In this document: positions 48 to 15,679 of the stretch, one piece after another | How positions within the stretch are numbered: the stretch's first letter is position 1 | How the letters are laid out: each line of letters opens with the position of its first letter | Source of the DNA: a bacterium | GTDB lineage: Bacteria; Babelota; Babeliae; Babelales; RVW-14 | DNA length: 15,799 nucleotides | Direction of reading: 5' to 3' | Assembly: GCA_043822925.1 (NCBI GenBank) | Contig: JBDRBF010000058.1 | Coordinates: forward strand, 1 to 15,799 | Made by a program: the position numbers and the translations under genes | Notes under the pieces: model-generated | Seen by the model: only the letters and a program-made list of their open reading frames with translations | Told to the model about the DNA's origin: nothing | Database searches by the model: none

Positions 48-866
48 TTACAGGCCACCAATAGCATTATAAATCCAGTCAGGAAGCAAATATATCAACC
101 AAGCAGCAAATTGCCAGCGCTTAGTAATATACGCAGTCTTCTTTTTCTCTTTAATCGCCTCATAAATCTGCTTGGCAGCTTCTTGAGCCGTTGCTATCCA
201 GTACGCATCCGGTGACTTATGCAGGTCTACCGCTTCAACTTCAACCCAACCAGGTATAATATCAGTAACATAAATTGGAATCTTTTTTTGAATCATCTGA
301 TTTCGAACGGCTTCAAGATAAATAGAAACAAAAGCTTTAGCCCCACTATAAACAGGATCGCGAGCGGTACCACGCAAGCCACTCGTCGAAGAAAAACCAA
401 CCAGATGTCCCGATTTTTGTTTTTCAAAAAAAGTAATTGCCGCATCTGACATAGTCCAAAAACCTATTAAATCAACCTCTATCGTTTTTTTATCAGCCTC
501 AAAGCATCGCTGCTGGTCAATTTTATCATTGGCTGCACTAATGCTAATAACCATTAAATCCAAACCGCCCATTTCAGATATCAACTCATGTAATTTTTGA
601 ATTGCTAATTCTGACTGAGTCACGTCTATCTGTTTTATATACGTTTTTGTTGGAATTTCTGCTTGCAGCGATTCAAGTAAATTTACCCGCCGCCCAGTCA
701 AACCAACGTCATAATCTTGGGCAAGCAATTTTGAAAGTTGCCTACCCATTCCAGAAGTTGCTCCGATTACGATCGCTTTTTTACGAATAATATTCTGCTC
801 AGGTTGGCAAAAACAAGACTGAAACCAAACACCCACAAATATAATTAATGCGATTAAAACACTCAT
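48..866 (-). CDS. Short-chain dehydrogenase/reductase (SDR) with N-terminal hydrophobic signal or anchor
   Basis: GATSGMG Rossmann motif, catalytic Ser region (FSSTSG) and YSGAK (YxxxK). ATG at 866 preferred over 893 because GAGGG lies just upstream. Confidence 0.9.
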   Translation of the reverse strand: MSVLIALIIFVGVWFQSCFCQPEQNIIRKKAIVIGATSGMGRQLSKLLAQDYDVGLTGRRVNLLESLQAEIPTKTYIKQIDVTQSELAIQKLHELISEMGGLDLMVISISAANDKIDQQRCFEADKKTIEVDLIGFWTMSDAAITFFEKQKSGHLVGFSSTSGLRGTARDPVYSGAKAFVSIYLEAVRNQMIQKKIPIYVTDIIPGWVEVEAVDLHKSPDAYWIATAQEAAKQIYEAIKEKKKTAYITKRWQFAAWLIYLLPDWIYNAIGGL

Positions 867-903
867 AACGCCCTCTTGCAAAAAAACAAACACAATCTAT
901 CGC

Positions 904-2187
904 TTAAAACCCTGCTTTAATTTTGCTAAAACAATTCAATAAATGGTCGACCTGTTCATCAGTATTTGCCGCAGTTAACGTAATGCGATGGCCTTCAGCC
1001 CCCTTTGCAACCATAGGATATGGGGAAACGGTTACCAGAATACCATCTTCAAACAACTGGTTAGCTGACGCTACCAAATCTGTATTGTTACCAATAACAA
1101 CATACACAATGGGAAACCCTGTTTGATTAAAAACTGTAAAACCAAAAGCTCTCAGGCCATTAATTGTTTTCTGAGTAAGATCCCACAATCTTTTGCGATA
1201 CAAATCTCCTCGTTTTTCGTTTATTTCTAACCCCTTAAGCAACGTCGCAAGTGACGCTGTTGGACAAGGGCCAGAAAGATCATACGGGGTGGCTACACCT
1301 TGGAGAAAATGACGCATCTTTTTTGAACAACCAATAAATGCAGCAAGTGACGAGTACGCTTTTGAGCACCCCCCAACATACAGAATATTTTCATAATCAA
1401 GCCCATAATGCTTCACAATACCGTTGCCCTTAAATCCAAGCGGCATCTCTTGTGTTGGTTTTTCGCCCACAATACCAAACCCGTGTGCATCGTCTATGTA
1501 CAAAATAGCGTCATACTTTTTAGCCAAATTAACCAACGTCGCAACATGAGCATAATCACCACTCATGCTATAAACACCATCAACCATAATAACTTTACGT
1601 GAATTCTCTTGATGTTTTATCAATAAAGCTTCAAGTGTTACAAAATCATCTTGCTTAAAACTTTCTAATTTAGCACCGCTATCGCGTGCAATTTTAGCCG
1701 CTTCATACATCGTCTCATGACCAGATTTATCCAACAACAAAACTCCCGTTTTTCCAACGAGCGCAGGCAAAACGCCAATAGAAATAAGCGTAACCGTTGG
1801 CAATATTAATGCGGCCTCTGTTCCAATAAGAGATGCAAGCTTTTCTTCAGCTTCTTGATAAATCAAAGGGCTGGCCACCAAACGGCACCAACTGGGGTGA
1901 ACACCCCATTTATTAATTTGGGAAGTAACATCTTCCTGCATTTCTGAGTCAAGATCGAGCCCTAAATAGTTGCACGAAGCAAAATCGTACACCCAATGCG
2001 TATCGCTCGTCCAAATCTTACGTCCCTCTATCTTGGTCGCAATCACATTATACTGAGACATCGCATTAAACATCTTAAAAATATGCGCGCGACGGCTTTC
2101 TTCTATGTTTACTTGTATAATTTTTTCTTCAGTACTCTGTACCAAGACATGTAGTGCCTGTTCTGAAAAATTTTCCTGATTTAACAT
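904..2187 (-). CDS. PLP-dependent alpha-oxoamine synthase (AONS/BioF-like, class II aminotransferase fold), SxtA4-like subfamily
   Basis: DFASCNYLGLD, DGVYSMSGD, DDAHGFG and SKAYSS (PLP lysine) motifs. AGGAGAG RBS at 2194-2200 on the minus strand. Confidence 0.92.
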   Translation of the reverse strand: MLNQENFSEQALHVLVQSTEEKIIQVNIEESRRAHIFKMFNAMSQYNVIATKIEGRKIWTSDTHWVYDFASCNYLGLDLDSEMQEDVTSQINKWGVHPSWCRLVASPLIYQEAEEKLASLIGTEAALILPTVTLISIGVLPALVGKTGVLLLDKSGHETMYEAAKIARDSGAKLESFKQDDFVTLEALLIKHQENSRKVIMVDGVYSMSGDYAHVATLVNLAKKYDAILYIDDAHGFGIVGEKPTQEMPLGFKGNGIVKHYGLDYENILYVGGCSKAYSSLAAFIGCSKKMRHFLQGVATPYDLSGPCPTASLATLLKGLEINEKRGDLYRKRLWDLTQKTINGLRAFGFTVFNQTGFPIVYVVIGNNTDLVASANQLFEDGILVTVSPYPMVAKGAEGHRITLTAANTDEQVDHLLNCFSKIKAGF

Positions 2188-2212
2188 TATTTTCTCTCCT
2201 ATTAACTTCTTA

Positions 2213-3025
2213 TTAAATATTTTTATTTTTTATAAAAAATTTTCTTTCACATAAACGCTGAAAACCTAATCGTTTAAACGTATTATTTGAATACGCATCT
2301 CGGTCACAATTTACTGCTATTTTAGAACAGCCCTGCTGCGCAGCAAATAACATACAAATTTGCCTCAGCCAGGTATAAATACCTTGTCGACGAAAGTCTG
2401 GGCTTGTCGCGCCTTCAGCAAAAAAAACCATATCTTGATTAAGCCCAATTAAGCCTATTGTTGCTGGAATATTATTATCTAAAGCTAAAGCGCATACGAA
2501 TTTAAGATCATGATAACGTGGATTCATGAGATTTTCTTTAAACTTTTCAAGCACCTGGCTATTTATGCCATTAACTTCAGCATCAAGCTTTAAAAATTGC
2601 TTTAATGCTCGCGAATTTGTCATAGGGTAAAATAAAAGACATTCCAGTTCTGGCTTTTGAGCCTGGAAAATTTTAATTTTTTCTGAAAGCTCTTGAAGTA
2701 CCTGTTTTTGAGTACAATCAAATGTATACCAATTTTCTTGCTCTTCTTTTACTTCAGCATACCCACGCATTATTAATATTTTTTCTAAATCTTGCGGGCT
2801 TTCTGGATCAAGATAAATCGCTGGATTTATCTTTTGTTTTTTAAAATAATTTTCTATATCGTCAAGAATCGCACCATCTATCGTATTTAATGCATGGGCG
2901 CAATTAAAATATAATCTATCAGCATTCTTAAGATGCGAAATTTGATACTCTTTGCTATCAACCAATTCATCATAATAAAGAGCATGCCAAAATTTGTTTG
3001 ACGCACGAAATAAATCAGACAACAT
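2213..3025 (-). CDS. GNAT-family N-acyltransferase
   Basis: C-terminal acyl-CoA-binding motif A (ATSPDFRRQGIY) and motif B (FKRLGF). ATG at 3025 has a GGGGAG RBS and overlaps the upstream gene end by 11 nt. Confidence 0.85.
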   Translation of the reverse strand: MLSDLFRASNKFWHALYYDELVDSKEYQISHLKNADRLYFNCAHALNTIDGAILDDIENYFKKQKINPAIYLDPESPQDLEKILIMRGYAEVKEEQENWYTFDCTQKQVLQELSEKIKIFQAQKPELECLLFYPMTNSRALKQFLKLDAEVNGINSQVLEKFKENLMNPRYHDLKFVCALALDNNIPATIGLIGLNQDMVFFAEGATSPDFRRQGIYTWLRQICMLFAAQQGCSKIAVNCDRDAYSNNTFKRLGFQRLCERKFFIKNKNI

Positions 3026-4622
3026 TCGAGCTCCCCTTCTGTTTAATGACATCAGCAAGCATTACCCGGTCAATCTTACCAGATGACGTCTTTGGCAACA
3101 CAGGATGCTGTAAAAAACCAAACGGAATCATATAATTTGGAATCTTTTCTTTCAAAAACTCAGTTAACTCATACGTGCTAATATCTGTATCACGTAACGC
3201 AGAATAAAAACAATAAAGCCTGTTCCCATATTTCTCATCAGGCAACGCGACAACACAAAATTCATCTATGCCTTTAAATTGCGCAAGCGCACTTTCTATC
3301 TCACCAAGCTCTATGCGATACCCACATACTTTTATCATGTGATCTTTTCGGCCCTTATAGTGCAAAACCCCCGCAAGATCGCGATATCCATAATCACCGG
3401 TGCGCCAGAATTTTGCAGAATAACTATGAAATGGGCTCTGCACAAAACATGCATCTGTTTTTTCTTGCATACCTAAGTACCCAAGCGTTACGGTTCCCCC
3501 ACGGCACCATAATTCACCATACTCATGTGGCTCACAAATCCGTGTACCATCTTCAGAAACAACAAGTATCTCTGTGTCATCAACTTCTGTCCCAAGAGGG
3601 ATCGACGTCATATCTTCAGGAATCTGCCCAATCCAATAACACGTTATAATATTTGTCTCAGTTGGCCCATAAATATTGGCGATTTTGGTATTAGGTAAAA
3701 TTTCTTGGAGCATACGCAATTGTGGGACCGGAAACGGCTCACCTGCGTACATGATTGTTCGTAAACACAATTTTTTATCGCGCAAATTGCCCTTATTCAT
3801 ACAAACGATATAGGTCGATGGCGTCGTGTATAAAATAGTTGCTCTTTGAGATTCTATAAGATCAACATATGCTTCGTGTTTTTTATCACCTTCTCGCTTA
3901 CTATTCCAATCATAACAAACAAGCTTTGCGCCCGCTTTAAACGTATTAAAAACATCAAAAACAGATAAATCAAATTTAAACGCAGCCCGTGACATCACAA
4001 CATCTGAACTCGTTAACTGAAATTCTTTGTGCATCCAATCAACAAACGTGCGCGCATTTCTGTGAGTAAGCATGATCCCCTTGGGGATACCCGTAGACCC
4101 AGAACTATGCAACACATACACTAAATCGTCACTCACCTGATTTATGAGCGCAGGCTCTGTATCATCTTCTTGTAATACTTGTTCAAATTTTATTATATTA
4201 TCAGGAACTTCACCGGCATAAGAATCTAAAAAAATTATCGTCTTCAAGCTCGAAATAAACAAAAGCTCTTTATATTTCTCATAAAATACTGGATCTATAA
4301 CAAGACAGTCCATACTTGTATTTGCAAGAATAAGCTTAAGTCGTTCGATAGGTGAATATTCATCAAGAGGGACATACGCACCGCCTATTTTAATAGCGCC
4401 CAAAATAGCCGCGATACTATTAATATGCACGGTCGATAGCACACCAACATATGGGTTTCGTCTTATATCTTGTTTATTTTTTTTAAATATTTGGGCGAAT
4501 CTATTTGATAAAGTATTAAGCTCTTCATACGTAACAGAACGCTTGTTTTCAAGATAAATAGCTTCATTCTTTGGATATTTTTTTACAGATTCTAAAAAAA
4601 CATCATGCAGTAAATATCTCAT
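3015..4622 (-). CDS. Stand-alone amino acid adenylation enzyme (NRPS A-domain; DltA/PltF/RedM-like)
   Basis: Core motifs: TYEEL (A1), GGAYVPLD (A2), YVLHSSGSTGIPKG (A3), FDLS (A4), NIYGPTE (A5), GELWCRG (A6), RTGD (A7), GRKDHMIKVCGYRIELGEIE (A8), LPKTSSGKIDR (A10). No C or PCP domain. Confidence 0.93.
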   Translation of the reverse strand: MRYLLHDVFLESVKKYPKNEAIYLENKRSVTYEELNTLSNRFAQIFKKNKQDIRRNPYVGVLSTVHINSIAAILGAIKIGGAYVPLDEYSPIERLKLILANTSMDCLVIDPVFYEKYKELLFISSLKTIIFLDSYAGEVPDNIIKFEQVLQEDDTEPALINQVSDDLVYVLHSSGSTGIPKGIMLTHRNARTFVDWMHKEFQLTSSDVVMSRAAFKFDLSVFDVFNTFKAGAKLVCYDWNSKREGDKKHEAYVDLIESQRATILYTTPSTYIVCMNKGNLRDKKLCLRTIMYAGEPFPVPQLRMLQEILPNTKIANIYGPTETNIITCYWIGQIPEDMTSIPLGTEVDDTEILVVSEDGTRICEPHEYGELWCRGGTVTLGYLGMQEKTDACFVQSPFHSYSAKFWRTGDYGYRDLAGVLHYKGRKDHMIKVCGYRIELGEIESALAQFKGIDEFCVVALPDEKYGNRLYCFYSALRDTDISTYELTEFLKEKIPNYMIPFGFLQHPVLPKTSSGKIDRVMLADVIKQKGSSNVV

Positions 4623-6861: not shown

Positions 6862-7857
6862 TTACCTTAAAGCGGGCTTATACTCGAGCTCATAGCCCTT
6901 AAAAAAAACTAACTCTTCGGTAAATATGTGGGATAATGCATCTTTACAACCACGATTTAAGTAAATCTTTTTATTCCAGCCTTCTCCTCCCGCAATATAC
7001 ATTAAATCGTTAATTTTAAGATTATACCGAGGGGCAATGGGTAGCGCGATTTTTTTTGTATCTTTTTTTGTAAATATTGTCTCAAGCGCATGGACATAGT
7101 TGTTTAATCTTGCATTTTTTTCTTCTTTTATACCAGGAACAAGCGCAACATAAAGCACCATTATAGGTACCGGACAGGCTGGAACCGTTCCATCTGCGTT
7201 AAAATAATTATACCCACGCATATATTTTTTTGTTACCTTAAAACCAGTAATAAAATCAAATCGATCTTCTGAAAACATTTGTATAAAAATTCTGGTAACA
7301 CTATCACAATACTCAGGCTTAACTTGAATATGTATTTTATAGCGACATGCTAGCCCATCAATAATTTCCTGCCGAGCCAGTTTTTGTTGGTCCAGTGCAA
7401 GCTTTCCAAACACGTCAATCAGGCCATCAAATGTCCCTGCTATAGGCGCAAGCATTTTTAATTCGTCTGCCAATAACTCTTGAACTAACTTCTTTTGCTG
7501 AGCTGGTTCAGCAATTAACACATGATAATACGGATTACAAATACAACCAGAATAGCCCGCAAAAGAATATACGGAATCAGGAAAAAACTTAGATTTTTTA
7601 AAAGCAGGAACAAATCTATCCTCGTAAGCACCAATACGGTCAAAGTAAAACCACTTGGCTGATTCTCTATATTTAAAGCACCCCGTTTTATCTAAACATT
7701 CTTTAAATATGTTGGTCAATTTTTTCTCGCTCGTTTTCGTGCGAGATACCTCTGGCGTAATTTTAATCGCCCCACATAACGGCGCATGGCACACAAGTGC
7801 CATAACTAAAACAAAACAAAAAACTATATTTTTTATATTTTTATTTTTCACAAACAA
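6862..7857 (-). CDS. Secreted hypothetical protein with phosphothreonine-lyase-like (SpvC/OspF, LanL/LanKC lyase) motifs
   Basis: Long ORF with signal peptide and ordered motifs YKIHIQV, FSED, FKVT, VLYV. Overlaps the end of the upstream bla gene by 17 nt. The CDS is confident, the function is tentative. Confidence 0.6.
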   Translation of the reverse strand: MFVKNKNIKNIVFCFVLVMALVCHAPLCGAIKITPEVSRTKTSEKKLTNIFKECLDKTGCFKYRESAKWFYFDRIGAYEDRFVPAFKKSKFFPDSVYSFAGYSGCICNPYYHVLIAEPAQQKKLVQELLADELKMLAPIAGTFDGLIDVFGKLALDQQKLARQEIIDGLACRYKIHIQVKPEYCDSVTRIFIQMFSEDRFDFITGFKVTKKYMRGYNYFNADGTVPACPVPIMVLYVALVPGIKEEKNARLNNYVHALETIFTKKDTKKIALPIAPRYNLKINDLMYIAGGEGWNKKIYLNRGCKDALSHIFTEELVFFKGYELEYKPALR

Positions 7858-8656
7858 CTTTCAATTTATTTAAAGCAAACTCTTTGGCAAGCTGGCTATT
7901 CACCCGATTTTTATCAATATCGCCATATATCAAACAAACAAAAATAAGCGTTTTTTGTTCTTGCGTAACCCAGCCTACATACCAGGCAACAGATTTTAGC
8001 TCACCGTCAAAAATCCCAGCACCCGTTTTGCCGTATAACCTCCAGCCATTATCCAACAGACCAACAAACAAAAGCTTTTGCGTAAGCTCATAAGCTTGGC
8101 AAGATACCGGCAAATTAAAATTCAATAGTTTTGCTATAAATTCAATTTGCTCTGTGGGCGAAATTTTCAGGCTCGAGCACAACCAAGCTCTGTTCAAGCC
8201 ATTATTTTGCCCAAGCTCTCCAGAAACATCACCGTTACCGTAATTAAAATCACGCACATATTTTTCAAACTTTTGCATACCCAAACGTGCCGTTATTTCA
8301 CACGAATACCAAATACATGAATTTTTTATCCATAATTGCGGCGTATATGCCTGTCTCCAGAATTCAAACTCAGCGTTATATTCTTGCTTGTACGGCAATT
8401 CCGGCTCACGCTCGTTTTTCAATATTCCAGCATCACAACCCATTAAGCTTAATGCTATCTTAAACGTTGAACACGGGGTTTGCCGCGTATCACAATCGCC
8501 CTCTTTTGCAATTATATCTCCAGACACGATATCTTTTACGATAAAGCACATCGAGCTAGGCATTACGCTTTTTTGCGCATTATCTTGCCAAAAGCAGGCG
8601 CTCAAACAAATTAATAAACTTATACACGCACCAAATAATATAGAGCGTAAAGTCAT
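7841..8656 (-). CDS. blaOXA: Class D (OXA-type) beta-lactamase family protein, possible lipoprotein
   Basis: PCSTFK (SxxK), SCIW (SxV-like), YGN, AWLCSSLKISP, KTG and WYVGWV motifs. LSAC lipobox-like signal. Confidence 0.9.
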   Translation of the reverse strand: MTLRSILFGACISLLICLSACFWQDNAQKSVMPSSMCFIVKDIVSGDIIAKEGDCDTRQTPCSTFKIALSLMGCDAGILKNEREPELPYKQEYNAEFEFWRQAYTPQLWIKNSCIWYSCEITARLGMQKFEKYVRDFNYGNGDVSGELGQNNGLNRAWLCSSLKISPTEQIEFIAKLLNFNLPVSCQAYELTQKLLFVGLLDNGWRLYGKTGAGIFDGELKSVAWYVGWVTQEQKTLIFVCLIYGDIDKNRVNSQLAKEFALNKLKVVCEK

Positions 8657-8900: not shown

Positions 8901-9143
8901 ATGAGTCCAACGGTTTTTAGATATAAAAAATATCGATTTTTCTTCTTTTCTCGTGAAGAAGACAGGATACACATCCATGTCGCATCACCTGACGGGGAAG
9001 CAAAATTTTGGATCGAGCCGCTTGTGGCGCTTGCAGATTATCATGGACTCTCTGAGCGTCAACTAAGAGAGCTTGAAAAGGTAGTAAAAAATCATGCCAA
9101 AGAAATCACAGAAGCCTGGAAAAAGCACGGTCACTCCAGTTGA
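8901..9143 (+). CDS. DUF4160 domain protein (putative toxin of a DUF4160/DUF2442 pair)
   Basis: MSPTVFRYKKYRFFFFSREEDRIHIHV...GEAKFWIEP...EAW signature. ATG at 8901. Confidence 0.88.
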   Translation: MSPTVFRYKKYRFFFFSREEDRIHIHVASPDGEAKFWIEPLVALADYHGLSERQLRELEKVVKNHAKEITEAWKKHGHSS

Positions 9144-9363
9144 GATAAATATTATTTCTAAAGAAGGATTTTGGATTTCTGTTCATAAACAGGAATATTT
9201 TCTTCCATTCTCAGAATATCCATGGTTTCGCAAAGCAACGATTGAACAAATCTATGAATTACAACTGCTTCATGAAAAACATCTTTATTGGCCAACATTA
9301 GATGTTGACCTTGAAGTAAGTTCTCTCAAAAACCCAGAAGCCTACCCACTAAAATTCTCATAA
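9094..9363 (+). CDS. DUF2442 domain protein (putative antitoxin)
   Basis: EYFLPFSEYPWFRKAT...LYWPTLDVDL...PEAYPL signature. Overlaps the DUF4160 gene by 50 nt. Confidence 0.88.
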   Translation: MPKKSQKPGKSTVTPVEINIISKEGFWISVHKQEYFLPFSEYPWFRKATIEQIYELQLLHEKHLYWPTLDVDLEVSSLKNPEAYPLKFS

Positions 9364-9482
9364 ATCTTAATCTCTATGCAAAAACAGGCTTTTGGGCCAT
9401 AAAAAAACCAAACGCTCCCCATAAAAGCCCAAAAAATTACCCATATTTTAAATAGCACTTTTCTCTTTGAATAAAAAACCCA

Positions 9483-9510
9483 TTGACTTTAGCGCGCAAT
9501 TTGCTAAATT
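9483..9510 (+). promoter_or_regulatory. Putative sigma70 promoter driving the tandem-attenuator leader
   Basis: TTGACT (9483-9488), 16-nt spacer, TAAATT (9505-9510) preceded by a TGn extended -10. Confidence 0.5.
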
Positions 9511-9516
9511 TATTCT

Positions 9517-9537
9517 ATCTGATAATTAATATCAGAT
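9517..9537. promoter_or_regulatory. Inverted repeat at the predicted transcription start (operator-like or 5' hairpin)
   Basis: ATCTGATA-ATTAA-TATCAGAT: perfect 8-bp arms with a 5-nt spacer. Confidence 0.45.
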
Positions 9538-9592
9538 TAAAAGTACGCAGGAACTTAGTGGGTCTATATCGTAGGAAAAACAGGAAAGAATC

Positions 9593-9742
9593 GTGAAAAC
9601 AAGCATGAACCATATATCTGGTACACACGCAAGCACAATTGCTTCGATGAACGTCGAACAATTGAATGGCTTGCTTTTTGCTTTTTTTGGATTCTTATTA
9701 CTTATGTTTTTTACATATTTACCCAGGGTTTATGCCTATTAA
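9593..9742 (+). CDS. Leader peptide 1 (Phe/Leu-rich), putative attenuator peptide
   Basis: GTG start after AGGAAAG, with in-frame ATGs at 9605 and 9647. Sequence MKTSMNHISGTHASTIASMNVEQLNGLLFAFFGFLLLMFFTYLPRVYAY*. It has 6 Phe and 7 Leu in the distal half, and its 3' end CCCAGGG (9722-9728) is complementary to the downstream terminator arm. Confidence 0.65.
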   Translation: MKTSMNHISGTHASTIASMNVEQLNGLLFAFFGFLLLMFFTYLPRVYAY

Positions 9743-9772
9743 TTTAATATTAAAATAGTTTAAAGATACACC

Positions 9773-9807
9773 AAAGCCCCTGGGAAAAAACCAGGGGCTT
9801 TTTATTT
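9773..9807 (+). terminator. Intrinsic terminator of attenuator 1
   Basis: AAAGCCCCTGG / CCAGGGGCTTT 11-bp stem, 7-nt loop, TTTTTATTT tail. Confidence 0.88.
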
Positions 9808-9851
9808 AATCAGATTTTAAAGTACTTAGATTTTAAAAACGAAAGATTTAT

Positions 9852-9932
9852 ATGATGCACTCAATAGTTTCAAATTTAGCTTTAGCCCTTTTATCTGGTT
9901 TATTAACAACCAGAGGAGACCCCGCTTTGTAG
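9852..9932 (+). CDS. Leader peptide 2 (Leu-rich), putative attenuator peptide
   Basis: MMHSIVSNLALALLSGLLTTRGDPAL*: 7 Leu plus Ile and Val in 26 aa, with GAAAG upstream. Contains a 1:2 hairpin (TCTGGTT 9894-9900 / AACCAGA 9908-9914) and antiterminator segment CCAGAGG (9910-9916). Confidence 0.78.
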   Translation: MMHSIVSNLALALLSGLLTTRGDPAL

Positions 9933-9965
9933 CTACAAAATATAAAAATATAGTAGCCCAATAGT

Positions 9966-10002
9966 AAGGCCCTCTGGATAAAACCAGGGGGCCTTTTTTT
10001 TT
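9966..10002 (+). terminator. Intrinsic terminator of attenuator 2
   Basis: AAGGCCCTCTGG / CCAGGGGGCCTT 12-bp stem (one G-U), 6-nt loop, run of 9 T (9994-10002). Confidence 0.92.
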
Positions 10003-10132
10003 ACTCTTTTTTAATTTTTAAATCGAAAGGCTTTTTATGAAGAAATAAAACGCATGAACACGTAAAGAAAACTCGTACATGTAACGTAAAAAAACAGAAC
10101 TAAATTAATGGAACTAAACTATAGGAAATAAA

Positions 10133-11275
10133 ATGAACATACAGAAAAAATACAGATTCATATTTTTGTTAAGCATGGCCCTTGGCGCCAATTGTTGGTG
10201 CATGAAAGAACAAGCATACACGGAAGAATCTGGCTATCCTGTCCAAGCAATGAAACATTATAAAAAAACATTGCCCCAAATTAATGTGCCCCAGAATGAA
10301 AGCTCACATGAAGAAATCGCAACTGAAATAGCAGAATTACTCTGTAAACTCACCGCTCAAGAGAACATATCAGGAAAAGATGTTCTTATTGATAACATTA
10401 AACAGTTTGTTCGCCAGGATAGGCGCATAAAACTTGTGCTGACAAGTTTTCCACTCAAATCATCCAACACCACGACAAAAACACTCACGGAAACTTTTGA
10501 TTTTGCTGATTATATCGGTTTGTACACGCTCAACCATATATGCAAACAAATAAAACGCATATATGACCCTGGGGCGAGAATACACATATATTCACGTGAG
10601 GTGCAAACAGACTATGCAAACAAAGTCACACAAAAATACTTTAACATAGACATATTCCCGGAAGAAGCCCGGCGGAAATATCAGCGGCGCCTGAAATTAA
10701 TTATTAAGCATTGCTTCAGTCAACACCTGGAACTTGAGACTGTTGACGAAGAAATAGCTATACAAAACTATGAGCAGGTCGCCAAGGCTTACAGTCTTGC
10801 AAGACAAGGCCAGGGCCTAAAGGATTACCTTGATAGAAAAATATTTTGGGAAGAAGATCTCTGTTGGCTTCGAGAGACCAATCCAAAAACCTACTCAAAG
10901 AGCAAAATAGAGAAGTGTGCTAAAGACATAGCCAAATGCATGATCATTGGGTCTGAAGCAATGAAGCAAACAGTAAACCAATTACTTGAGGAGAAAATGT
11001 ACATCAAGCTATCAATGCACCCGGACAACGAGGTAAACAATCACATAGGCTTTTCGCTTGTGTATGGAGCCATAGGAGCCCCTTGGCACAATGTCGTTGC
11101 TTTTGATGATGATCAACTTGTTTATGGACACCGTGATGACATAGAAAAACATGTCCAACAGAAATGTAAACTCAGCGATATGCAAGCAAAAAAAGCAACA
11201 AGCTGTTTGGTGAGAAAATGGAACCCACCAAGCTGTGAGTTTGAACTTGAATACGTAGATGTTACAAACGATTAA
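10133..11275 (+). CDS. Divergent isocyanide (isonitrile) synthase family protein (PvcA/IsnA/Dit1-like) with signal peptide
   Basis: LTSFPLKSSN (cf. LPAFPxKSPN), ICKQIKRIYDPGARIHIYS (cf. IYxPGAxIxIxSDG), IKLSMHP (cf. IRLSIHP), APWHNVV (cf. TPWHxV). AGGA RBS and hydrophobic N-terminus. Confidence 0.78.
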   Translation: MNIQKKYRFIFLLSMALGANCWCMKEQAYTEESGYPVQAMKHYKKTLPQINVPQNESSHEEIATEIAELLCKLTAQENISGKDVLIDNIKQFVRQDRRIKLVLTSFPLKSSNTTTKTLTETFDFADYIGLYTLNHICKQIKRIYDPGARIHIYSREVQTDYANKVTQKYFNIDIFPEEARRKYQRRLKLIIKHCFSQHLELETVDEEIAIQNYEQVAKAYSLARQGQGLKDYLDRKIFWEEDLCWLRETNPKTYSKSKIEKCAKDIAKCMIIGSEAMKQTVNQLLEEKMYIKLSMHPDNEVNNHIGFSLVYGAIGAPWHNVVAFDDDQLVYGHRDDIEKHVQQKCKLSDMQAKKATSCLVRKWNPPSCEFELEYVDVTND

Positions 11276-11294
11276 GCACTCTAGAAAAAAACAC

Positions 11295-11334
11295 GCCACC
11301 AGCCCCGATGTACTCCCTTTACGGGGTTGGCGGC
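11295..11334. other. GC-rich intergenic stem-loop between the isocyanide synthase homolog and brnQ
   Basis: GCCACCAGCCCCG / CGGGGTTGGCGGC with a 14-nt loop. No U-tract on the + strand, only an A-run upstream. Confidence 0.6.
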
Positions 11335-11413
11335 ACAAAAACAACAAGAAAAGCGCCTGACGTTAATATAAATTAACGAACTTATTAACTTAATTAACTA
11401 TAGAAGGGTGATT

Positions 11414-12589
11414 ATGAAAAAATCACAAATAATTTCAGTCGGAATGGCCATGTTCGCCATGCTCTTTGGCGCAGGAAACATTGTATTCCCACTTGTCCTT
11501 GGACGAGATATGGGGGACATGCTTTGGTTTGGACTTTTAGGTTTTACCATTACTGCGATTGTAGTACCAATTCTTGGCCTCGTTTCAATAATGCTCTGCG
11601 ATGGACAATATGATCTATTTTTAGGCCGTCTTGGAAAAATCCCAGGAGCTATAATTGCGACTATATGTATGATCGTTATCGGGCCTTTTGCTATCACGCC
11701 CCGCTGCATCGTCATTTCTCACGCAGGAATTAAACCATATATGCCACAATTCACACTACTCTACTTTAGTATATTTTGCGCGGCGCTTATTTATGCTTTC
11801 ACCAGAAAACAAAACTCAGTAATCGACATAATTGGTAAATTTCTGGCCCCACTTAAAATAATTTTACTTCTCGTTCTTATTGTTGTCGGCTTTATGTTTC
11901 CAGCAGCTTTTCTTACCGTGTCTATGTCCTCTGGACAAGGTTTCACTACCGGATTAACAACCGGATTCGGCACCGGAGACTTGCTTGGTACTATCTTTTT
12001 CTCAGCACTTATCTTATCTGGCATAAGAAAAAGCATAGCTGATGCTGGACACATTGCCCCAAAAACGCTCGCAATAAAAGGCCTACAATCTGGCCTTATT
12101 GGAGCTTTACTTCTTGGGTTTATGTACACCGGCTTTTGCGTTGTAGCCGCATTTCATGGAGCAAAACTCGCAGGAGTCCAAGATGGTGACATCTTTAGCA
12201 AACTTGCAAATTTGGTCTTGGGCAGTATTGGTGGCCTGATGGCAAACATCACCGTTGGGGTAGCCTGTCTGGTAACCGCCGTTGCATTAACAACAGTTTT
12301 TGCCGACTTTCTGCAACGCATAATACTAAAAGAAAAAATCAGTTATCACACCTGCTTGCTCATCACTATCGCAATTACAACCATCATGTCAAACCTGGGC
12401 TTTGCACGCATCATGCAAATTGCTGGACCAATTCTGGATATTTTATATCCAGGACTAATCGTGCTTGCTATCGTAAACATCGCTCATGTTCTATTTGGTT
12501 TCAAATGGATCAAGGCGCCTGTCTTTGCAACATTTGCTATCACGATTGTTATACAATACTGGGATACTTTTCAGGCATTAATCAAATAA
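11414..12589 (+). CDS. brnQ: Branched-chain amino acid:cation symporter (LIVCS family)
   Basis: GMAMFAMLFGAGNIVFP signature, IGPFAITPR, IDIIGKFLAP, ACLVTAVAL, ILYP and about 11-12 hydrophobic segments. ATG at 11414 (or GTG at 11408) follows AAGGG. Confidence 0.93.
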   Translation: MKKSQIISVGMAMFAMLFGAGNIVFPLVLGRDMGDMLWFGLLGFTITAIVVPILGLVSIMLCDGQYDLFLGRLGKIPGAIIATICMIVIGPFAITPRCIVISHAGIKPYMPQFTLLYFSIFCAALIYAFTRKQNSVIDIIGKFLAPLKIILLLVLIVVGFMFPAAFLTVSMSSGQGFTTGLTTGFGTGDLLGTIFFSALILSGIRKSIADAGHIAPKTLAIKGLQSGLIGALLLGFMYTGFCVVAAFHGAKLAGVQDGDIFSKLANLVLGSIGGLMANITVGVACLVTAVALTTVFADFLQRIILKEKISYHTCLLITIAITTIMSNLGFARIMQIAGPILDILYPGLIVLAIVNIAHVLFGFKWIKAPVFATFAITIVIQYWDTFQALIK

Positions 12590-15007: not shown

Positions 15008-15679
15008 ATGGCATTGTTAAGGTATTTAGCTTATGGATTAAGCTTGATAACTATAATTTTTTTTATAGGAGCATGTATGAACAAATCTTCTCGATCATCT
15101 GGCACAGTGATAATAATAAACGGCCCATCTTCAGTCGGAAAATCAAGTATTATCAAAGCATTTCAAGCCAAACAAAATGCTCTGTGGCTATCAATTGGAA
15201 TAGATAATTTTTTTGTCGGTGTTTTGCCCCCAAAGTTTTATTTAGAACGTACACCAGAACATTGGCCAGTCATGCAGGGTATTGCATCAGAAGACAAAGA
15301 CGGTAAATTATTTACACTTAATATCGGCCCAGAAGGCAAAAAAGTTATTCAGGGCATGCATCGCGCAATCGCTGCATATGCACATGCCGGCAACAATGTT
15401 ATTGTTGATTACATAAAGTACGAACAAGCATGGCTACCAGATCTTCAAGATACTTTACATGATATAAACGTTATTTGGATTGGAGTTACTGCATCACTAG
15501 AAACAATACAACAACGCGAAAAAACACGTAAAACATCGCCTGAAGGGCATGCCCGCAGCCATTATCATACAGTTCACCAAGGCATAACGTATGATTTGAT
15601 GTTAAACACTGACTCTTTAACGGCTGACCAGGCTGCTGAACAAATTATTAACTTTATGACAAAACAAAAAACAAAATAA
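15008..15679 (+). CDS. Chloramphenicol phosphotransferase (CPT)-like P-loop kinase with N-terminal lipoprotein-like signal
   Basis: IIINGPSSVGKSS Walker A, GIDNF, AGNNVIVD, QREKTR lid, YDLMLNT. AGGAG RBS and FFIGAC lipobox-like motif. Confidence 0.85.
   Translation: MALLRYLAYGLSLITIIFFIGACMNKSSRSSGTVIIINGPSSVGKSSIIKAFQAKQNALWLSIGIDNFFVGVLPPKFYLERTPEHWPVMQGIASEDKDGKLFTLNIGPEGKKVIQGMHRAIAAYAHAGNNVIVDYIKYEQAWLPDLQDTLHDINVIWIGVTASLETIQQREKTRKTSPEGHARSHYHTVHQGITYDLMLNTDSLTADQAAEQIINFMTKQKTK

Follow-up and report, generated by a model that had tools for sequence, protein, structure and literature searches.

Leader-peptide attenuation is textbook knowledge for the biosynthetic operons of Proteobacteria. 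The classical attenuators of the trp, his, phe, leu, thr and ilv operons in Enterobacteria consist of a short open reading frame (ORF), in which codons for the sensed amino acid are clustered, a terminator and an overlapping antiterminator, and the position of the ribosome picks the fold. In Staphylococcus aureus, the ilv-leu operon is reportedly preceded by a leucine-rich attenuator peptide, in a study said to deal also with BrnQ carriers, and the genes controlled there are biosynthesis genes. The subject of this work is the leader region of a DIT1/PvcA-like gene and a brnQ paralogue on a stretch of 15,799 nucleotides (nt), in the following the window, which is contig C58 (JBDRBF010000058.1) of a 1.52 Mb assembly of 86 contigs with 37% G+C from a bacterium of the phylum Babelota. 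This leader probably comprises two ribosome-read attenuators in series, which would control the DIT1/PvcA-like gene and probably also the brnQ paralogue. It shares with the classical attenuators the short ORF, the codon cluster, the terminator with overlapping antiterminator and the proposed choice of fold by the ribosome, including a 1:2 hairpin in its second unit, and with the S. aureus operon a Leu-codon leader peptide. On the other hand, it has no sequence or covariance-model relationship to the classical systems, and its genes encode a transporter and a DIT1/PvcA-like protein instead of biosynthetic enzymes. Its first leader ORF is, with 49 amino acids (aa), a further point of difference, and unit 1, as well as the asnA-type modules of the same genome described below, is a two-state switch; as these lack a 1:2 hairpin, their untranslated RNA is predicted to read through.

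Leader peptides had been known only from Proteobacteria and Actinobacteria when new cases were reported for Firmicutes, along with a tandem terminator in some rimP leaders (PMC2965389), and the host of the present locus, a small-genome lineage, lies outside the phyla named there for leader peptides. The tandem attenuators mgtM and mgtP of Salmonella mgtCBR have been termed 'a singular example' (Lee and Groisman, 2012; PMC3641672), so that the view of the preliminary description of this DNA, by which attenuators normally occur singly, stands insofar as tandems are rare, but not without a precedent. As proposed for the window, two short ORFs in one mgtCBR leader each govern alternative stem-loops and convey two signals to one operon. 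However, the mgtCBR ORFs sense ATP and proline-tRNA, act by independent addition and show no homology to the window, where both units carry Leu codons and each has a complete intrinsic terminator of its own, so that the effects should multiply. Control of branched-chain amino acid carriers by tRNA charging is likewise known, as LIVCS/BrnQ carriers in Firmicutes are under T-box control (PMC2494555), which also works through a terminator/antiterminator switch; there the sensor is an RNA that binds uncharged tRNA, whereas for the window a translating ribosome is proposed. A literature search on brnQ leader peptides and tandem attenuators, with supplementary attenuator lists (e.g. of PMC2965389) outside its scope, found no description of the arrangement in the window.

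All genes between 8880 and 12589 lie on the forward strand, as do the leader features given here. A DUF4160/DUF2442 pair ending at 9363 is followed by a gap of 770 bases, the DIT1/PvcA-like gene as the first regulated gene (10133..11275; 380 aa with hydrophobic N-terminus; Pfam PF05141, 8.8e-34) and the brnQ paralogue (11408..12589; LIVCS transporter, PF05525, 1.7e-63), assignments which agree with the isocyanide-synthase homologue and brnQ named previously. The leader starts with a sigma-70-like promoter, TTGACT-16-TAAATT with a TGn extended −10 element (9483..9510; 9 of 12 positions in the scan), for which a transcript start around 9517 is expected. Leader ORF1 (9593..9742) is called from a GTG 4 nt behind a good Shine-Dalgarno (SD)-like AGGAAAG (9582..9588), and 7 Leu and 6 Phe are found among the 20 codons at 9662-9721 of its 49 aa. 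Its anti-arm CCCAGGG (9722..9728), read as Pro-Arg-Val and situated 11 nt before the stop, pairs with CCCTGGG (9778-9784) in the 5′ arm of terminator T1 (9773..9807; stem 9773-9801 with 11 pairs, of which 7 G-C, T-run 9799-9807, −21.3 kcal/mol), and a repeat analysis lengthens this pairing to 10 of 11 nt (9718-9728/9778-9788). Leader ORF2 (9852..9932), 26 aa from an ATG located 6 nt behind a weak SD-like GAAAG (9841..9845), has Leu codons at 9876, 9882, 9888, 9891, 9900, 9903 and 9927. Here the anti-arm CCAGAGG (9910..9916; Thr-Arg-Gly, 13 nt before the stop) pairs with CCTCTGG (9971-9977) of terminator T2 (9966..10004; stem 9966-9995 with 12 pairs, of which 8 G-C, nine T from 9994, −23.1 kcal/mol), whereby T9973, in a G-U pair within T2, forms A-U within the antiterminator. 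The promoter, the positions of ORFs and terminators as well as both 7-nt pairings between leader end and terminator arm had been read correctly, base for base, in the preliminary description. Both units hold a short ORF with predicted translation signals and a cluster of Leu or Leu and Phe codons, the latter weak in ORF2, followed by an intrinsic terminator on the same strand as the genes downstream.

The transcription unit appears to depend on the one promoter. The 9483 site is the sole site of at least 9/12 within 9363-10140, and the promoter scan found no consensus-like promoter between T2 and the DIT1/PvcA-like gene; 8/12 sites overlap the start codons of ORF2 or the PvcA-like gene or precede T2, and none of 9/12 or better lies in 10002-10133, where an independent promoter would have spoken against the preliminary proposal. 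Promoters of at least 8/12 are also absent from 11270-11415 between the PvcA-like gene and brnQ, and the brnQ paralogue is probably co-transcribed with the DIT1/PvcA-like gene without a promoter of its own, while the two other brnQ copies of the genome have one (CTGACT-16-TATAAT). PvcA-like genes of relatives possess, as read by eye, consensus promoters of the TTGACT...TATAAT type; hence the consensus seems applicable in this phylum.

When the 3′ arm of the terminator was withheld from folding as a mimic of nascent RNA, the minimum free energy (MFE) structure used the anti-arm pairing in both units. The protector 1:2 hairpin of unit 2 (9894..9914; arms 9894-9900/9908-9914), postulated from the outset, is present in the MFE fold. 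Upon masking of a ribosome footprint, the anti pairing of unit 2 is complete (7/7) for each A-site up to 9894, which includes four Leu codons, and lost (0/7) for A-sites from 9900 to the stop; the probability of the arm being paired upstream is 1.00, subsequently 0.75 (9897) and 0.81 (9900) and, from codon 9903, 0.53-0.62. Modelled in this way, the antiterminator excludes the terminator and would be masked by a ribosome at the ORF end, cleanly in unit 2 and weakly in unit 1. The full 1:2/2:3/3:4 scheme, initially ascribed to the locus as a whole, is confined to unit 2, while unit 1 is a simpler two-state module.

According to the proposed mechanism, the 650-base leader transcribed from the 9483 promoter would hold both attenuators. 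In the nascent RNA, each anti-arm would first pair with the loop-side half of the terminator 5′ arm and thereby block the terminator hairpin. A ribosome at the ORF stop would cover the anti-arm 11-13 nt upstream, upon which the terminator would form and transcription end, whereas a ribosome halted earlier, at the Leu/Phe codons 9662-9709 of unit 1 or the Leu codons 9876-9893 of unit 2, would leave the anti-arm free and allow the polymerase to read through. As both terminators must be passed, read-through would multiply, and the DIT1/PvcA-like gene, probably together with the brnQ paralogue, would be expected to show a low basal expression and a steep dependence on starvation. Judged from its codons, the operon would most likely be on only when leucine, perhaps also phenylalanine, is short. 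Since unit 1 carries 7 Leu besides its 6 Phe codons, a Phe-AND-Leu logic is only a candidate, and Leu starvation alone might open both units. The Leu codons fit the function of BrnQ as assigned by Pfam; Phe fits only by analogy with chlamydial BrnQ, for which Phe and Leu both compete (PMC11140210, citing Braun, 2008).

The same module plan occurs elsewhere in the genome, where it can be read against a gene of clear function. In a scan of the whole genome, hairpins with a T-run were sought whose 5′ arm has a G+C-rich complement of 6 nt or more, itself followed at 4-19 nt by an in-frame stop; nine sites fit the plan among 1165 hairpin and T-run sites, and in four of the nine, T1, T2 and one each on contigs C43 and C47, an intergenic leader is combined with a hairpin of −15 kcal/mol or below. 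The C47 module (G000:C47; locus L069 449-1928) has the promoter TTGACA-18-TAAAGT, a leader ending in ...NNSQQNNQNNNNQNIIAGCRA, the anti-arm GCTGGG at a distance of 9 nt from the stop and, starting 28 nt downstream of that stop, a terminator; the order of control-codon run, anti-arm, 3-4 codons, stop, about 30 nt and terminator is that of the window units. The gene that follows is asnA (Pfam AsnA, 2e-106), and eight Asn among 12 codons of the leader are unique among the 2515 intergenic ORFs of the genome, which served as background for codon density; the codon run therefore names the product of the regulated gene.

Sixteen other asnA loci were found in 15 of 60 relatives, 17 with the own locus. 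An Asn-rich frame precedes 12 of the 16, and in 9/17 a terminator is combined with an anti-arm of 6-10 nt in the last 40 nt of this frame, usually read as Ala-Gly-Val. The remaining Asn-rich loci comprise one with a 5-nt anti-arm, two without a perfect 5-nt complement and one without a hairpin within 110 nt; four loci have no Asn-rich frame, one of these with just 107 nt of upstream sequence. Relatives from several genera and families retain the asnA module, and all three arms show compensatory changes, as in locus L076, where GCCGGGG replaces GCTGGGG and both terminator arms have changed to match. The window units share the order and spacing of this module (codon run, 3-15 nt, anti-arm, 6-26 nt, stop, 22-31 nt, terminator), with 11 nt from anti-arm to stop and 30 nt from stop to terminator in unit 1 and 13 and 33 nt in unit 2, and the weak CGAAAG motif in front of the ORF2 ATG also precedes the ATG of the asnA leader. 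They differ in being lineage-specific, doubled and equipped with Leu/Phe codons, whereas the asnA module is single in the genome, carries Asn codons and is conserved across genera. This module of the same geometry with cognate codons backs, by analogy, the earlier reading of two terminator/antiterminator modules in series. An asnA leader peptide of this kind was not found described in the literature search, and for the asnA and permease loci no Rfam family reached its gathering score.

The C43 module (locus L068 1775-2008, minus strand) precedes an AA_permease_2 gene, which itself follows a paralogous permease gene, and its ORF of 57 aa is rich in Ser, Thr and Asn, with last codons that repeat 8 nt from the 3′ arm of the terminator that follows. 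The assignment of this module is ambiguous: within the ORF lies a promoter-like site (TTTACA-18-TATAAT; 11/12) from which the RNA could start at the anti-arm.

Several observations weigh against two serial attenuators in the window. No collection searched contains an orthologous leader, and comparison of the 701-nt leader DNA (9440-10140) with 40 relatives gave only T-rich or terminator pieces of 24-81 nt, in five of them. The PvcA-like gene itself is found in 10/261 genomes of the phylum with an identity of at most 34%. Conservation in the brnQ leaders of relatives, by which the proposal was to be judged, was not found: the module is present in 0/24 upstream regions of brnQ in relatives and 0/14 other PvcA-like loci, and it is absent from the two other brnQ copies of the genome. 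In Rfam, Phe_leader (RF01859) scores 32.0 bits where 55 are needed, with an alignment that fits the terminator alone. As to the ORFs, the 6 Leu in 12 codons of ORF2 are weak on their own, because six of one residue are reached by 169/2515 intergenic ORFs (6.7%), and its SD is weak; ORF1, in which 13 Leu and Phe in 20 codons are equalled by 14/2515 (0.56%; genome-wide codon frequencies Leu 10.2%, Phe 5.2%), is of considerable length for a leader peptide, with a Leu/Phe run that resembles a membrane helix. Folding with a constrained ribosome footprint, successful for unit 2, models unit 1 poorly, since A-sites 9698-9707 are the only ones within the run for which the MFE structure contains the exact anti pairing, and wherever the ribosome stands the arm is 0.59-0.9 paired upstream, with other upstream partners in most states. 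The promoter scan returned one site against 5.6 in shuffles, fewer than expected by chance. Finally, small ORFs led by an SD are found before 9/14 other PvcA-like loci, mostly without terminators, so that ORF1 may be a companion small protein.

The latter reading, in which ORF1 is a genuine gene for a small membrane protein accompanying DIT1/PvcA with T1 as its terminator, is the main rival and is compatible with attenuation, not exclusive of it; we regard it as rather unlikely. ORF2 and T2 would then be a second small gene, a small RNA or the sole true attenuator, and the downstream genes would owe their expression to leaky termination or to a promoter that escaped recognition. SD-led ORFs of 30-90 aa that end 60-450 nt upstream occur at 10/15 PvcA-like loci compared with 49/703 intergenic regions of the genome, a contrast which is only indicative as the loci are kin and the background stems from one genome. 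The small ORFs upstream of PvcA-like genes are polar in their N-terminal and hydrophobic or aromatic in their C-terminal half, in most relatives no terminator follows them, and ORF1 is among only 3/703 with the polar-then-hydrophobic shape by a criterion set after seeing the data, another of the three presumably encoding ATP synthase subunit c by the look of its peptide. By a first, hydropathy-based criterion ORF1 had failed as a companion small ORF. It has no homologue (0 in 1.84 billion representatives, 0 by word search, best atlas value 0.80), and none was found for the corresponding small ORF of G001 either, while the tracts upstream of PvcA-like genes look pyrimidine-rich by eye, a composition that by itself keeps frames open. 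What a small gene leaves unexplained is the distance from anti-arm to stop, which is as in the asnA modules, and the absence of a later promoter. ORF1 as a type I toxin was dropped, as the N-terminal half is the polar one and an antisense promoter is not apparent (no formal test made).

Attenuation in series has further to be set against coincidence, that is, two ordinary strong terminators at the ends of small transcripts with fortuitous upstream complements and no regulation. Of 20,000 dinucleotide shuffles, 2.6% (T1) and 2.3% (T2) produced a Watson-Crick complement of 7 nt to the 5′ arm at 15-90 nt upstream, and each complement alone (p ~0.025) was picked post hoc; jointly, the probability is ~6e-4 if the two are independent, which they possibly are not, as the mutual resemblance of T1 and T2 was reached in only 1/1000 shuffles. 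Beyond the terminators, an alignment of units 1 and 2 as duplicates is not significant (165/1000 shuffles). Genome-wide, 4/187 terminator-like hairpins, T2 among them, have a 7-nt complement (shuffle mean 2.2), and T1 counts only at 6 nt, where 13/187 qualify, as the seventh base of its pairing lies in the loop; five terminator-like sites were observed in 9000-10400 compared with 1.2 ± 1.1 in shuffles. Coincidence is distinctly unlikely, considering that the elements are placed relative to the stop codons as in a conserved attenuator class and that three transcription units would need promoters where only one is seen. The switches could also be real with the ORFs incidental, flipped by a protein or small RNA that binds the anti-arm region in place of a ribosome. 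The poor SD of ORF2 would suit such a factor, as would the internal promoter-like site of the C43 module, from which the RNA would come without a leader ORF. This we consider very unlikely, as the anti-arm lies in frame in the last ORF codons in all four modules of the genome and in 9/17 asnA loci, the asnA ORF carries cognate codons, and the window contains no Rfam family at gathering score, T-box and riboswitch families included. The T-box covariance model has no match in the window, Leu_leader gives no row at E up to 10, and the rows below threshold fit mostly terminators.

Two serial attenuators thus stay the preferred reading. The lineage has small genomes (0.8-2.1 Mb, where sizes are given, in the 260 other genomes of the phylum), lives in hosts and presumably cannot make most amino acids. 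It is conceivable, if doubtful, that it runs asnA, a permease and a brnQ paralogue on a home-grown family of minimal two-state attenuators, two of which are stacked in the window into a multiplicative, AND-like or ultrasensitive Leu/Phe switch that drives a starvation-specific BrnQ and a DIT1/PvcA-like protein. The 'isonitrile synthase' family would, if this is true, gain an unsuspected role in amino acid uptake or use. Already in the preferred reading, attenuation appears to control uptake genes in an uncultured lineage of reduced genomes that depends on hosts for amino acids. Two complete modules in series are rare and, if real, would represent natural multiplicative logic made from the simplest RNA switch. 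The locus supplies a testable regulatory link between the BrnQ paralogue and the DIT1/PvcA-like protein, and the module plan may be used to predict the substrates of neighbouring transporters from leader codons.

The pairing of the two protein families recurs outside the window. In a sister genus (locus L027 556-2679, G001:C35; also L011), a 707-aa fusion joins BrnQ (Pfam 11-382) to a DIT1/PvcA domain (from 442), and the gene thereafter is another PvcA-like gene; the brnQ/PvcA-like neighbourhood is therefore a recurrent functional link. Protein scans for the PvcA-like protein in metagenome and genome contigs gave 0, 0 and one distant locus (a 32% relative), and the scan of genome contigs with BrnQ gave one 40% relative, in another phylum. 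An alignment of eight PvcA-like sequences was dropped as search query, being too divergent, and a hit at locus L061 was rejected as a module since its 6-nt complement, with 67 nt from stop to arm and 564 nt upstream, is outside the geometry. The small ORFs before PvcA-like genes, 35-81 aa at L011, L027, L051, L057, L059, L060, L061, L063 and L065, have C-terminal halves that are hydrophobic or rich in Tyr and Phe, the Tyr/Phe content being striking in two ORFs (G155, G192), and could be leader peptides, small proteins or composition artefacts. At L063 and L060, where a terminator follows the small ORF, no complement of at least 6 nt was detected; at L063, a spurious ORF is possible, as is an assignment of the terminator to the preceding gene.

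The other two brnQ copies of the genome, with BrnQ 91% and 81% identical to that of the window, follow ruvB (G000:C15 2686-5164 and C16 6160-8536) and may reflect true paralogy or two binned strains (contamination 3.2%); they share the last 35 nt of the brnQ 5′ region, and immediately in front of these each copy has a different G+C-rich structured insert. A second copy of the leader itself is absent from the genome. Among sequencing runs, the leader is free of substitutions in the contigs of X2, X3 and X4, the sole difference being a T-run from 9994 that is one base shorter in X2 and X3, so that there is no natural variation to read; run X6 covers 9426-9618 only, and no RNA run is among the runs found to hold the locus. 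A contig of run X4 shares just the T1 hairpin (9773-9805) with GAA inserted in the loop and different flanks on both sides, and one of run X2 agrees with the window as far as 9775 and departs from it thereafter; either a variant locus or similar terminators at other sites could account for these.

At the expected transcript start, the palindrome ATCTGATA-ATTAA-TATCAGAT (9517..9537, forward strand), seen by reading the sequence and in the repeat analysis, may be an operator or a 5′ stem-loop, and its half-site together with AAAGTAC is repeated at 9808-9825 directly after T1, a resemblance without significance in the local alignment (165/1000 shuffles). Between the PvcA-like gene and brnQ, a G+C-rich hairpin of 13 bp (11295..11334) lacks a T-run on the forward strand; a T-run follows on the complementary strand, yet no converging gene is located there. 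At the asnA locus, a second small ORF with good SD (L069 752-916; 54 aa, start MNNDGNN) is situated between asnA and the terminator before it, overlaps the start codon of asnA and could add a layer of translational control. Elsewhere in the genome (G000:C38 12252-12465), an SD-led ORF of 70 aa ending in HRHHHHHHISH, possibly a His-sensing leader, lies behind a TTGACA promoter-like site and precedes the gene for a 343-aa protein of unassigned function, followed by a 253-aa gene whose product we take, from its N-terminus, to be racemase-like. The remainder of the window contains a cluster of genes for SDR, aminotransferase, GNAT and AMP-binding enzymes (48-4622, minus strand), a 271-aa protein with penicillin-binding transpeptidase domain in the size of a class D beta-lactamase (7841-8656, minus strand) and a chloramphenicol-phosphotransferase-like gene (15008-15679, plus strand).

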